Part shown: piece after piece, positions 15,120 to 30,271 of the stretch
Layout of the letters: each line of letters starts with the position of its first letter
Position numbering within the stretch: position 1 is the stretch's first letter
Virus record (IMG/VR): IMGVR_UViG_3300031965_000009
Span: 15,279 to 79,278 of that record
Reading direction: 5' to 3' (one strand)
Source of the DNA: a virus
Lineage: Duplodnaviria; Caudoviricetes
DNA: 64,000 nt
The notes under the pieces: model-generated
Told to the model about the DNA's origin: nothing
The model's database searches: none
What the model saw: the letters and a program-made list of their open reading frames with translations, nothing else
Made by a program: the position numbers and the translations under genes

Positions 15120-15284
15120 GCAATGGGTATTGATTGGCTGTATTGTATTGGCAACTGACCGACAAACGGCCGATAGCTAGACAACCTTAACAACAGAATA
15201 TGACCTATAGATTAATGGTTGGCATTATTATTTTAATGTTTTTGTGCGATAACACTATCGCTTATCCTTATGGAGAAAAATAAA

Positions 15285-26097: not shown

Positions 26098-26727
26098 ATG
26101 AGGGACACAGCACCAAAGCGAAATGAGATTCAAATACTAAATGACCGCAGGCGAACTGCCCAGCTACTGCTTGAAGGGTACACCCATCAGCAAATACGTG
26201 ATGTACTCGAACAAGAGACTGGAATTACATTGTCGCGTCGTACAATTACCAATGATGTCGGGGCTATCAAGAAAGACTGGGCCGAGCAGCAAAGGGCCAG
26301 CGTCCATGCTCTTGTCAATCAAGAGATTGACAGGCTGGACTTCAGCGAAGCTGAAGCATGGCGGGCATGGCGGGCCTCATGCGGCGACGAGGTTCAGGAA
26401 ACTGTCGAGAAGATAGCCAGGTACATGAAGCAAGAGGATGGCTACGTACCCGACGAGGATGAATACGAATTAAGGGTTCAGCGCGTGACCCAAATAATCA
26501 AGAAGAGCGGTGGCGTAGGCGACCCAAGATTCTTTAATATCATCCTCGACCTACAGAAAGAAAGGCGGAAGCTGCTGGGATTGTATGCGCCAAGCAGGTT
26601 GGGCATTGATGTCACCACCAAGTCGGAAATCATTATCAAGGGCTATGCCGTCAAGGACGTGTCGCCTGACGCATGGCCGTCCCTGCCAAGCAATGACATC
26701 ATCGAGGGAGAGATAGTTGAACGGTAA
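26098..26727 (+). CDS. terminase small subunit-like HTH protein
   Basis: Immediately upstream of terL; N-terminal HTH (LLEGYTHQQIRDVL...SRRTITND); start moved to ATG 26098. Confidence 0.7.
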   Translation: MRDTAPKRNEIQILNDRRRTAQLLLEGYTHQQIRDVLEQETGITLSRRTITNDVGAIKKDWAEQQRASVHALVNQEIDRLDFSEAEAWRAWRASCGDEVQETVEKIARYMKQEDGYVPDEDEYELRVQRVTQIIKKSGGVGDPRFFNIILDLQKERRKLLGLYAPSRLGIDVTTKSEIIIKGYAVKDVSPDAWPSLPSNDIIEGEIVER

Positions 26728-29700
26728 AGCAGACCTGTATAATGGCCAGCGCATGTATCATCCTTCTGCGATGACTACGCACAATTCCACCTACAGGTAC
26801 ATCAACACATTCAACCCCCTGCCATGGCAGGCCAAGCCATGGGCAGACATCTCGCCTGTCATATTATTTTCGGGCTCGAGGGGAGGTGGAAAAGCGCTCT
26901 ATATAGACACCGATATTGCCACCACCAACGGATATGTTAAAATGAGGGACATATCGGTTGGTGACATAGTGTTTGACGAGCGTGGAAAACAAACAACGGT
27001 TACCGAGGTAACTGATGTGATGCTTGCTAGGCCATGCTATGAAATTAGCTTCTCGACTGGAGAGTCTGTCATCTGTGACGCTAACCACGAATGGGTTGTT
27101 GGTATAGCCGGGAACAGGTCGAAGAGAGTGATTGAGACCGCCGAGACGATGTTTCATAATCAAAAAACCGGGAGGGAGAATAGCTATTCGGTTTCAGTGT
27201 GTGGTTCGGTAGAGCACGACGAAAAGGAACTTCCGGTATCGGCATGGTTGGTTGGATTTCTTATCGGAGATGGGTACCTTAAAAACGTATCTTTCACAAC
27301 GGCAGATACAGAGATAGCAGACAGGGTAGCAAGTGAGCTAGAAGAGGGACACTCGGTCGAACACAGACCTAGCGCCAGCAATAACTATACGTACCAGATA
27401 CTAACAAACAGAGCAAGGTCTAAGGATATAGAAGTAAATTCTGGCAGGGTATATCTACACTCCGATGGCAAAAAATACGTAGCCATGGCCAATGGAGATG
27501 GGACAGAGGATGGATATAAACGAGACTCGGAATATTTGGGGATGTTCGATACAGAAGAAGAGGCATGGAACGTTCTCATCGGCCATACCGGAGGAATGAA
27601 ATTAACTCTGCACGGACATGGTCTTATATACAACCTGTCTAAACTAAGTCTAAGAGACAAGACATCGGCTACAAAATTTATCCCAGACATCTATAAATAT
27701 TCCTCTGTGAACCAAAGACTAGAAGTACTCAGGGGCCTTATGGATGCGGACGGACATATACAACCGGGTCGCGGACGGGCGGAGATAACAGTTATAAGCG
27801 AGAGGCTTGCTAATGACATATTCGAGATAGCGTGCAGTCTAGGAATAAAGGCCCATATCGCTAAGAGAGATATGAAGTTTAACGGCGAGCCATATGATGC
27901 GTGGAGAGTACAGTTTACGTCTGATATTCAAGTATTCTGGTTGCCAAGAAAGGCTAATCTAGTGAAGTCTAAGCTGCGTAAAACTCAATACAGAAGGTAT
28001 ATAACATCAATCAAGAAGGTCGATTCTGTTCCTGTAAAATGTATTGAAGTTGACAGTCCGCTTCACTCTTACTTAATCACGAAGTCTCATATTCCAACCC
28101 ATAACTCCCGTCTTGCTGCCGAACGTGCTCATGCCTTCTGCTTGAAATACCCGAACGCTGTTGTGCAGGTCGTGCGCAAGACCAAGTCAAGCTTGAAGAA
28201 GTCTGTCCTGCATAACCTGACAACCAAGGTCATTGGCGATGATCCCAGGGTCTTGCATCACAAGAATGACAGCATGTTTGTCTACGACAACGGCAGCACG
28301 CTCATATACGATGGCATGTCTGACCCGGCGGCAAGAGAAAGGATGAAGAGCCGGGAGCCGGACATGGTGTGGATGGAAGAGGCTAAGGACTTTACGGAAG
28401 AAGATTACAACGAGATCATAGCATTGGTTCGTGGGACGGCCGCCCCATGGAGGCAGATTGTTCTTTCGACGAACCCTGACGGGCCATTGCATTGGATTAA
28501 CAGAAGGCTTATCTTACAGGACGAGGCTAAAGTATACTACAGCGGTGCTAAGGATAACCCGCACCTACCGATAGAGTACATAGAAAGCCTTGAATCATTG
28601 ACTGGTGTTCAGTACCAGCGCGAGGTGCTTGGCCTGTGGGTTAGCGGTAGCGGTATTATATTCGACACCTGGAAAGACGATCAGAACGGTAAGAGTAGTA
28701 ACGTTACGGCCGAAGCAGTCATTGACCCGCATGGCGGGGACATTATCTGGGCCATAGACGATGGCTATTCCGGGACGTATGATAGGGAAAGCGGGTATTA
28801 CACCGCCAATTCTCATCCACGAGCCATGCTCCTTGCGCAGCGTCGTCCCGACGGCGTGCTTGTCATTGCCGACGAAAGCTATGCCATTGAAACACTGGCA
28901 AGCAATCATATAGCCGAGAAGCTCAAGGACTGGCCCAGGCCGTACATGATCGTGCGGGACAGGGCCGCTGCGTCATTGGACGGGGCATGTCGGGAGAATG
29001 GGTTAAGAAATATTATCTACAACACCATGCACGTTGACGAATCTATCAAAGAAATGCGCAAGTGGCTGGCCGAAGACCATAACGGCGTCAGGAAAGTGCT
29101 TGTCCACCCACGCTGCAAAATGCTCAGGAGCGAGATGGCCCAGTATTCCATGGATAATGATGGCCGGGTAATCAAGGAGCATGATAATGGCTGCCTTGTT
29201 GCCGGAACCATGGTGGCTACGCCAGACGGAGAAAAGAAAATAGAAGACATAGTGTCTGGTGACATGGTCATGACAAGACTTGGCCCAAGGCCCGTTGAAG
29301 TTTCGTCCATGACGGACTCAGACGCAGAAATATGGCGATTAGAATTAAGTGACGGAAGATTTATAGAGGGTACAGGTAATCACCCAATATATGTGAAGGG
29401 TGCTGGATTCGTTGAATTGCACTCCATGTCTCCTGGTGATACAATAGATTGCATATCTAATTACATCAGGAGAAACGAATGTCGAAATCAGAAGTTATCA
29501 CTTACGGGGGAATCAGATTCCGGCGATACCCAAACTCTAAAAGATGGGCAAACAAATCGTATTATTCCCCAGGAATTGCTGACAGGCAACGGGGAATCGA
29601 GAGCCTTCACAGAGAGATTTACAAGGACAATTTTGGGCCAATTCCAGATGGCGCACACATCCATCACGCGGATGGCAACCCGCTTAATAATGACCCAAGC

Positions 29701-30271
29701 AATCTTGTTTCCGTCTCTAGTAACAGCGAACACCAGAAGCTTCATGCTGGCGAAAGAGTATACCATCCACCAACCAGGGCAGCCCTTTCGGCCGCTGCCG
29801 AATGGCACAGAAGCGACGAGGGACGAGCATGGCACAGAGAACATGGTAAGAACTCCTGGATTGGAAGAGAACCAATTACCCTATCGTGCAACCAGTGCGG
29901 ATCAAGCTACGAAACACTTGACAGGAAGGGAACAAATAGATTCTGTTCAAACGCCTGCAAGTCCTCATTTAGAAGAGCCTCTGCCGTCGATGACGAAGAG
30001 AGGATATGCGAGTGGTGCGGAGCAGAGTTCTCAATCAATAAATACAGAAAAACAAGGACGTGCACAAGATCGTGTGCTGCGTACATACGCAACAGGGAAA
30101 AGAAAACCGGTATATAACCTGGCCGTCGCTGATAATCACGAATTCTTCGCTAATGGTATTTTAACCCATAACTGCGACGCACTTCGTTATCTCATATGGA
30201 ACGAGTCATACGGCAGGGGTAGAAAGATTGATGTTGTATCATGGTCACAAATAGAGAGGGCACATGCCTAA
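26717..30271 (+). CDS. terL: terminase large subunit (about 453 aa mature) containing two inteins
   Basis: Walker A GSRGGGK|S, Walker B VWMEEA, coupling motif LSTNP, RNase H-like IDDGY and HDNG|CDALRY; 1184-404-327 = 453 aa. Confidence 0.95.
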   Translation: MNGKADLYNGQRMYHPSAMTTHNSTYRYINTFNPLPWQAKPWADISPVILFSGSRGGGKALYIDTDIATTNGYVKMRDISVGDIVFDERGKQTTVTEVTDVMLARPCYEISFSTGESVICDANHEWVVGIAGNRSKRVIETAETMFHNQKTGRENSYSVSVCGSVEHDEKELPVSAWLVGFLIGDGYLKNVSFTTADTEIADRVASELEEGHSVEHRPSASNNYTYQILTNRARSKDIEVNSGRVYLHSDGKKYVAMANGDGTEDGYKRDSEYLGMFDTEEEAWNVLIGHTGGMKLTLHGHGLIYNLSKLSLRDKTSATKFIPDIYKYSSVNQRLEVLRGLMDADGHIQPGRGRAEITVISERLANDIFEIACSLGIKAHIAKRDMKFNGEPYDAWRVQFTSDIQVFWLPRKANLVKSKLRKTQYRRYITSIKKVDSVPVKCIEVDSPLHSYLITKSHIPTHNSRLAAERAHAFCLKYPNAVVQVVRKTKSSLKKSVLHNLTTKVIGDDPRVLHHKNDSMFVYDNGSTLIYDGMSDPAARERMKSREPDMVWMEEAKDFTEEDYNEIIALVRGTAAPWRQIVLSTNPDGPLHWINRRLILQDEAKVYYSGAKDNPHLPIEYIESLESLTGVQYQREVLGLWVSGSGIIFDTWKDDQNGKSSNVTAEAVIDPHGGDIIWAIDDGYSGTYDRESGYYTANSHPRAMLLAQRRPDGVLVIADESYAIETLASNHIAEKLKDWPRPYMIVRDRAAASLDGACRENGLRNIIYNTMHVDESIKEMRKWLAEDHNGVRKVLVHPRCKMLRSEMAQYSMDNDGRVIKEHDNGCLVAGTMVATPDGEKKIEDIVSGDMVMTRLGPRPVEVSSMTDSDAEIWRLELSDGRFIEGTGNHPIYVKGAGFVELHSMSPGDTIDCISNYIRRNECRNQKLSLTGESDSGDTQTLKDGQTNRIIPQELLTGNGESRAFTERFTRTILGQFQMAHTSITRMATRLIMTQAILFPSLVTANTRSFMLAKEYTIHQPGQPFRPLPNGTEATRDEHGTENMVRTPGLEENQLPYRATSADQATKHLTGREQIDSVQTPASPHLEEPLPSMTKRGYASGAEQSSQSINTEKQGRAQDRVLRTYATGKRKPVYNLAVADNHEFFANGILTHNCDALRYLIWNESYGRGRKIDVVSWSQIERAHA
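26894..28105 (+). mobile_element. intein 1 (404 aa, class 3-like, LAGLIDADG homing endonuclease) at the Walker A K/S site
   Basis: Starts with Ala (ALYIDTDI); block B CDANHEW; LVGFLIGDG and LRGLMDADG; block F VKCIEV; ends IPTHN before +1 Ser. Confidence 0.92.
29192..30172 (+). mobile_element. intein 2 (327 aa) in the nuclease domain, with no in-frame endonuclease
   Basis: Starts CLVAGTMV; block B GTGNHPIYV; block F VYNLAV; ends ILTHN before +1 Cys. Confidence 0.92.
29479..30117 (+). CDS. HNH homing endonuclease with two Zn fingers, nested in an alternative frame inside intein 2
   Basis: Own SD AGGAGAAACGA-ATG; SLHREIY..GPIPDGAHIHHADGNPLNNDPSNL..EHQKLH; CNQC..CSNAC and CEWC..CTRSC. Confidence 0.88.
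   Translation: MSKSEVITYGGIRFRRYPNSKRWANKSYYSPGIADRQRGIESLHREIYKDNFGPIPDGAHIHHADGNPLNNDPSNLVSVSSNSEHQKLHAGERVYHPPTRAALSAAAEWHRSDEGRAWHREHGKNSWIGREPITLSCNQCGSSYETLDRKGTNRFCSNACKSSFRRASAVDDEERICEWCGAEFSINKYRKTRTCTRSCAAYIRNREKKTGI

Follow-up and report, generated by a model that had tools for sequence, protein, structure and literature searches.

A terminase intein as a probable harbour for an HNH homing endonuclease gene read in another frame

Inteins whose homing endonuclease is encoded in a separate reading frame were described by Gosselin, Arsenault and Gogarten (bioRxiv 10.1101/2025.01.02.630785), who reported an open reading frame (ORF) for an endonuclease VII-like protein (IPR004211 / PF02945) in "frame 3" of the TerL inteins of actinophages. 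Out-of-frame, "hidden" HNH endonucleases are also known from ShiLan-domain insertions in phage DNA methylase genes (Arsenault et al., Genes 2025; PMC11855218), and Dassa et al. (NAR 2009; PMC2677866) described fractured genes, in which a free-standing endonuclease gene lies between the halves of a split intein. In this study, we analyzed the terminase gene terL in a stretch of 64,000 nucleotides (nt), referred to here as the window, which corresponds to positions 15,279 to 79,278 of the IMG/VR virus record IMGVR_UViG_3300031965_000009, a metagenome-derived record of 79,278 bp. The second intein of this gene, intein 2, encloses an ORF for an HNH endonuclease in a frame offset by 2 nt from that of terL. 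In our view, intein 2 is probably a class-1 mini-intein in which an autonomous gene for an HNH homing endonuclease finds a safe harbour. The initial annotation of the window had raised the possibility that such a two-frame design was undescribed, a suggestion that did not hold as separate-frame endonuclease inteins were already reported by Gosselin et al.

Anatomy of the intein and its second reading frame

The frame from 26717 to 30271 is a single uninterrupted terL ORF, whose product after in silico removal of two inteins is 454 amino acids (aa) long. The features of the locus are listed below in window coordinates; pLDDT stands for the local distance difference test score as predicted for AlphaFold2 models.

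29479..30117, + strand: HNH_3 endonuclease ORF, 212 aa, frame offset 2 nt from terL (HNH_3, 4.6e-12)
29192..30172, + strand: intein 2, class-1 type, 327 aa (Hint_2, Intein_splicing)
29192..29467, + strand: N-terminal splicing region, intein 2 residues 1-92, blocks A and B, with TGNH at 29372-29383 (pLDDT ~97)
29474..30058, + strand: terL-frame linker, intein 2 residues 95-289, a putative translated pass-through that is not a domain (pLDDT mostly <50)
30059..30172, + strand: C-terminal splicing region of intein 2, blocks F and G, VYNL...THN (pLDDT 95-98)
30173..30175, + strand: +1 Cys codon of the C-extein (Pro or Val at this position in intein-less relatives)
29468..29472, + strand: AGGAG Shine-Dalgarno, ending 6 nt short of the HNH ATG (from the sequence)
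29429..29473, + strand: predicted RNA hairpin with a 10-bp stem, the Shine-Dalgarno paired with an upstream CUCCU (minimum free energy -24.8 kcal/mol)
26717..30271, + strand: terL ORF, 1184 aa, with two inteins (Terminase_3, Terminase_6N)
26894..28105, + strand: intein 1, Ala1 ... HN/Ser+1, with a LAGLIDADG endonuclease (LAGLIDADG_3, Hom_end)

The HNH ORF runs on the same strand as terL from an ATG at 29479 to a TAA ending at 30117, and its product matches Pfam HNH_3 with 45.8 bits against a cut-off of 24.8. It combines a putatively I-HmuI-like catalytic core with two FCS/YacG-like zinc fingers (CxxC...CxxxC) in the C-terminal half, so that the initial description of a complete 212 aa HNH protein with two zinc fingers and its own AGGAG was accurate. 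Just upstream of the start, the HNH frame is shut by a stop codon at 29458. At the other end, the TAA (30115-30117) consists of the T of TAT and the AA of AAC, the Tyr-Asn codons of block F, which is where the initial annotation had placed it. The third frame over the same stretch contains 13 stops. All 21 family-invariant residues are retained in the window protein, those of the HNH motif and the eight cysteines of the zinc fingers among them, with H62, H63, N70, N71, N75 and H85 being invariant among 45 sequences. The AlphaFold2 model of the ORF product has a pLDDT of 92.8. A Foldseek search of this protein against the PDB returned nothing at E <= 1e-3, and it was through a VIA-align search that I-HmuI (PDB 1u3e) surfaced as the top match of the HNH core, with a Z of 6.9 (which is below 8) over 76 residues at a root-mean-square deviation of 3.1, the next entry having a Z of 3.9. 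Between I-HmuI and the HNH core the profile E was 1e-3, while the Foldseek E was no better than 0.065.

Intein 2 is inserted in the RNaseH-like nuclease domain of TerL, at ..EHDNG/CDALRY (a slash within a sequence marks a junction). Its splicing blocks, C1, TGNH, VYNL and THN/C+1, were all found to be present, as first noted: Cys1 opens the intein (CLVAGTMV), TGNH forms block B, VYNL...HEFFANG forms block F, and a terminal THN is followed by the +1 Cys. Two of its residues, V307 and N327, are invariant in the family alignment, and the Hint_2 match on the whole TerL scored 37.8 bits (cut-off 28.4). In the structural model, the Hint halves have a pLDDT of ~97 and resemble the mini-inteins gp41-1, MchDnaB-1 and RecA, with comparisons to 6qaz, 6riy and 2in0 giving E ~3e-6 to 3e-5 and a template-modelling score to target of <=0.8. 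The splicing residues, the predicted Hint fold and the colinearity of the host protein after removal together place intein 2 among the class-1 inteins on sequence and model grounds, and protein splicing would be expected of it.

No promoter-like or terminator-like sites were found on the + strand within the HNH/intein region. The hairpin predicted over the HNH Shine-Dalgarno is weak (z = -1.96) and particular to this window; ribosomes translating terL would melt its stem at 29429-29473, and this could couple HNH initiation to terL translation. Sequestration of the Shine-Dalgarno as a trait of the family was considered and rejected (mean pairing probability 0.53 versus 0.53 in controls, p = 0.63). 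Intein 1, which interrupts the Walker A motif (GSRGGGK/S), is context only rather than part of the main finding. It is sporadic too, with close relatives reading GSRGGGKS without an insert.

Recurrence of the layout and selection on each frame

A scan of IMG/VR gave 542 matches from which 80 contigs were kept for analysis and these, together with four cultured phages and the window, comprise 85 loci with this HNH family. The nested out-of-frame layout is present in 77 of the 85 (72/80 IMG/VR contigs, the four cultured phages and the window). Nested loci share the 2-nt offset, the terL insertion site and an HNH stop that is on or near block F, and in the 72 contigs the HNH is nested in an open frame of 700-900 aa with the identical offset. 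The cultured carriers are Tetrasphaera phage TJE1, Acinetobacter phage Highwayman, Clostridium phage phiCDHM19 and Rhodobacteraceae phage LS06-2018-MD07, in each of which an HNH homolog (31-43% identity by tblastn) lies within the annotated terL, offset by 2 nt in an uninterrupted terL coding sequence. Hint/intein-splicing domains were identified in 10 of 10 sampled spanning ORFs, along with Terminase_3 or Terminase_6N in seven and Terminase_3C in three. Every one of 76 related inteins has a Cys1, a terminal Asn and a +1 Cys (a few have Ser), and they share the nuclease-domain site ..(D/N)H/C...HN/C-x-DA-x-RY. The hosts of the phages carrying this HNH family include Actinobacteria, Proteobacteria and Firmicutes. 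A motif resembling a Shine-Dalgarno, sought with a loose pattern, precedes the HNH start in 50 of 68 loci.

In the window, the terL frame has 0 stops across the HNH ORF, where 6.3 would be expected from the HNH protein sequence and the codon usage of terL. The initial annotation was correct that this frame is stop-free, but its estimate of a chance of 4e-5 was too optimistic: the Poisson P0 is ~2e-3 (0 of 3000 simulations were stop-free), and P0 is 0.007 when the synonymous codons of the HNH ORF itself are permuted. The evidence for stop avoidance at the level of the family is far stronger than this single-locus figure, as 67 unique nested copies have 0 terL-frame stops where ~266 would be expected. 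Eight non-nested relatives, which are either free-standing or within a split intein, have 2-12 stops each, matching the expectation from their own codon usage.

The two frames also differ in how they are constrained, a comparison across homologs that had been suggested at the outset. In close pairs, differences concentrate on the third codon positions of the HNH (13/6/32, 16/18/59 and 20/11/61 by position). Among closely related pairs, the ratio of nonsynonymous to synonymous substitution rates (dN/dS) is 0.05-0.41 in the HNH frame, whereas in the terL frame it is 0.65-1.9, that is, ~1. The third-position bias and the dN/dS of both frames thus indicate that the HNH is under purifying selection and that the in-frame middle of the intein is constrained merely to avoid stops. 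No Pfam match was obtained for the 195-residue terL-frame linker, which AlphaFold2 predicts to be disordered, consistent with its first description as featureless. Sequence and model therefore depict the linker as an unconstrained, disordered pass-through that is held stop-free. Taken together, these data confirm a genuine layout that occurs widely and is subject to selection.

Several individual loci are of note. Among 68 loci the HNH stop codon is TAA in 32, TGA in 36 and TAG in none; the lack of TAG follows from the stops usually being built from the Tyr-Asn or Tyr-Asp codons of block F. One contig (L013:3477-4409) has a nested HNH of 310 aa with extra zinc-finger repeats, over which the terL frame is stop-free for ~930 nt. 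In another IMG/VR contig (L053:3489-3551), the HNH frame is broken by a premature stop at about codon 17 while the terL frame is open, which looks like a decaying endonuclease in a retained intein. In Clostridium phage phi CD119 (L089; NC_007917, 778-2595), terL is annotated in pieces, and gp03, a "hypothetical protein" (1897-2595), is out of frame with an HNH match (1947-2462, offset 2). Probably, gp03 reads the terL-frame linker, C-intein and C-extein, and the HNH is unannotated.

Empty alleles, family states and rival explanations

Alleles of terL without the insertion exist among the relatives of the window. The nearest TerL relatives are 79% (P0001, 458 aa) and 75% (P0002, 452 aa) identical and have neither intein, and the in silico spliced TerL aligns to both with no gap at either intein junction. 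Their sequences at the intein-2 site are ..HDDF/PDALRY and ..HDNG/VDALRY, and it is because Pro or Val occupies that position in intein-less relatives that the +1 Cys appears to have arrived with the intein. No HNH was found near terL in the 1.5-3 kb flanks examined of these two relatives. A near-complete relative with a TerL 79% identical to that of the window (L091; Logan SRR18218241, 78,425 bp) keeps the terS-terL-portal order without inteins and, judged by its sequence, would serve as a natural empty-allele comparator. Cultured phages gave no match to the window by megablast of terL or tblastn of the portal gene, and an exact-peptide scan of IMG/VR found no close terL relatives, although a protein search did yield relatives. 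The window contains no decoy of the empty target, as the 20-mer of the rejoined empty-site junction has 0 matches in it at <=3 mismatches. Between the window and other carriers, extein identity is 21-28% in most comparisons, with some exteins barely alignable, and identities are 31-54% for the HNH and 26-50% for the Hint region, the exteins thus having diverged much further than the element they carry.

Not all members of the HNH family are nested. Free-standing copies lie just downstream of an intein-less terL in L008, L010, L011 and Lactobacillus phage CL2, on the opposite strand in the gap from terL to the portal gene in Shemara, and before terS in BP10. In L041, L054 and L084, the two parts of a split terL intein flank the HNH, as they do in L082, which is cut at the contig end. 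In the former three, the N-extein and N-intein (CLTGDTLV-type) end at a stop that is followed by the HNH, and the C-intein (VYNMEVE..HN/C) and C-extein resume in another frame, overlapping the HNH 3' end. An unrooted maximum-likelihood tree of the HNH has the free-standing copies interspersed among nested ones, with well-supported pairs (L010 with L013, and L003 with L029), and at least three state changes are forced on it. Since free-standing copies adjoin intein-less terL genes and are interspersed with nested ones, the sequences fit a mini-intein that hosts an HNH of free-standing type. To this extent the initial proposal of a mini-intein with an HNH of free-standing type stands, a gain of the HNH by the intein being one possible direction of change on the unrooted tree. 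Possibly, although we hold this only tentatively, the HNH cassette cycles between free-standing, nested and split states around one terL site, with the nested out-of-frame state as the stable dominant form and with terL translation gating the window HNH via its hairpin. If so, the cassette would be a living series for the models in which an endonuclease invades a mini-intein and in which inteins fracture, and the nested out-of-frame state would not be a short-lived intermediate.

The mechanism we propose for the safe-harbour intein is as follows. Ribosomes translating terL would read ~195 codons of meaningless linker, which would need only a stop-free frame and a length divisible by three. The Hint halves would then fold and excise the whole insert to give a normal 454-aa TerL. 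The HNH would be a separate product, from ribosomes that start within the terL (late) mRNA at the AGGAG/ATG of the HNH gene, with its translation ending at the stop formed from the conserved block-F Tyr-Asn codons. Its most likely target would be an intein-less terL, cut near the site encoding the conserved ..DH/xDAxRY, and repair from the occupied allele would copy in the intein together with its HNH and the codon for the +1 Cys. Splicing, separate translation, target and homing are each deduced here from sequence. Several points weigh against this mechanism. Initiation internal to a translated ORF is usually inefficient, and the Shine-Dalgarno of the window HNH is itself predicted to be paired in the hairpin. 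The family count of Shine-Dalgarno-like motifs used the loose pattern mentioned above, and selection was measured in other members of the family, the HNH nearest to the window copy being 54-56% identical. In addition, the broken HNH frame of L053 suggests that some nested copies are inactive.

Other explanations of the locus can be weighed against these data. HK97-type phages need HNH proteins for cos cleavage (HK97 gp74), and the window HNH could likewise be a terminase accessory nuclease, not a homing enzyme, that sits in terL for co-expression with the packaging genes. All family members are indeed at terL, whether in an intein, between split halves, downstream, in the terL-portal gap or before terS, and HNH nucleases adjoining terminase genes are a known class (PMC3592412). 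We nevertheless regard this as unlikely, because the closest TerL relatives (79% and 75%) have neither the intein nor an HNH in the flanks examined, which makes the HNH dispensable in this lineage, and its spread across very divergent exteins resembles that of a mobile element. Furthermore, the core is nearest to I-HmuI, with the packaging-type HNH of GVE2 reaching just Z 3.7, and Pfam identifies HNH_3, with PF01844 absent at E <= 0.01. Packaging HNH proteins of the HK97 gp74 type, which the terminase requires, are small (~100-130 aa); the window HNH has 212 aa. A different possibility is that the window ORF is an inactive relic, in an intein that persists since its precise loss is rare, the openness of the HNH frame being a mere remnant. 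L053 illustrates that family members can decay, and the window copy lacks a close relative in which its selection could be measured. However, the ORF is full-length with every invariant residue intact, its AGGAG is strong and at ideal spacing, and its product is modeled with high confidence (pLDDT 92.8), making a relic improbable.

Two further explanations would deny the HNH or the linker the role given to it here. Inteins with an HNH or HNH_3 domain in frame are known, such as that in the dCTP deaminase of cyanophage CL131 (PMC6293099), and the window derives from a metagenome, so a sequencing or assembly error, or programmed frameshifting, might have concealed an HNH that is really an in-frame intein domain. 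This would require the recurrence of two compensating indels, at matching positions, across 77 assemblies and isolates that are independent of each other, which is not credible. Moreover, the HNH frame is closed by a stop at a median of 15 nt before the start codon, a fusion would end at the HNH stop ahead of the C-terminal splicing blocks, and a stop-free terL frame under selection would be pointless if it were not read. A programmed -1 frameshift that would join intein and HNH into one protein was also rejected, with a canonical slippery heptamer present in 5 of 63 loci and the window not among them. We thus give error or frameshifting hardly any credence. The probability is just as slight that the in-frame middle of the intein is a functional domain, making the region dual-coding for two useful proteins. 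One helix (residues 152-187) does reach a pLDDT of 60-80 and there are a few invariant columns (G205), but the conservation of these residues is accounted for by the invariant HNH codons that overlap them, and the terL-frame dN/dS of ~1, the lack of a Pfam match and the low pLDDT of most of the linker all argue against such a domain. An HNH gene sheltered by a mini-intein is the interpretation that we favor.

Significance and relation to described systems

The out-of-frame design is no rare actinophage oddity, but a large, long-lived and apparently mobile family over phages of several bacterial phyla. It also has implications for annotation, as such inteins are easily taken for decaying or mini-inteins, and the nested nuclease can be missed or terL split, as in phiCD119. 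The region is a clean case of overprinting, in which selection acts on the protein of the first frame and, in the second, purely on the absence of stops. The family represents natural material for testing both how inteins acquire endonucleases and how split inteins originate. Potentially, the pairing of an I-HmuI-like HNH with zinc-finger DNA-binding modules, and with a conserved putative target region, could yield new site-specific nucleases.

Of the known systems, the TerL inteins of Gosselin et al. are the most similar to that of the window. In both, the endonuclease ORF lies between the splicing blocks on the same strand with an offset of 2 nt, the frame shared by extein and intein stays open, and the intein middle in that frame lacks structure. 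Their example, gp5 of Mycobacterium phage Vincenzo, has the 2-nt offset, but its nuclease is an Endonuclease_7 (PF02945, 4e-17) rather than an HNH_3. There is no detectable homology between the Vincenzo endonuclease VII-like nuclease and the window HNH (BLASTP E = 1.8), and the 2-nt offset, which this unrelated ORF uses too, might be a favoured one. The inteins also differ in location, that of Vincenzo being in the ATPase domain (IILIQ/C..HN/T) and intein 2 of the window in the nuclease domain. Lastly, the cases of Gosselin et al. were reported only from actinobacteriophages, with HNH listed solely as in-frame, whereas the window family spans phages of several phyla.

The other systems each share part of the arrangement. 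In ShiLan insertions, as in the window, an HNH is overprinted out of frame in a stop-free host ORF with its stop at the very end of the insert; however, those insertions have no splicing domains and remain in the host protein, whereas that of the window is within a complete, removable intein. The intein of the cyanophage CL131 dCTP deaminase likewise unites a Hint domain and an HNH_3 nuclease in one mobile element, but its nuclease forms part of the intein polypeptide as a domain and is not, as in the window, a separate ORF in another frame. I-HmuI, an HNH homing endonuclease from a Bacillus phage, ranks first in both structure and profile among the matches to the catalytic half of the HNH (18% identity), yet it is encoded by an intron rather than nested in an intein, and the DNA-binding part at the C-terminus of the window HNH consists of the two FCS/YacG-like zinc fingers. 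The fractured genes of Dassa et al. resemble the window in having an endonuclease of free-standing type in the intein slot, with its 3' end overlapping the coding region of the C-terminal intein. In the window, unlike in a fractured gene, no break interrupts the terL frame between 26717 and 30271, so that there would be a single precursor, for which cis-splicing is expected. Relatives of the window HNH do match that arrangement exactly in terL (L041, L054 and L084). As the endonucleases of Dassa et al. are GIY-YIG and Vsr-like, HNH not being among them, these fractured terL genes carry a nuclease type absent from the 2009 set. Relative to published out-of-frame inteins, therefore, the design itself is already known, and what is new is its HNH_3 nuclease, its site in the nuclease domain of TerL and its very wide distribution.

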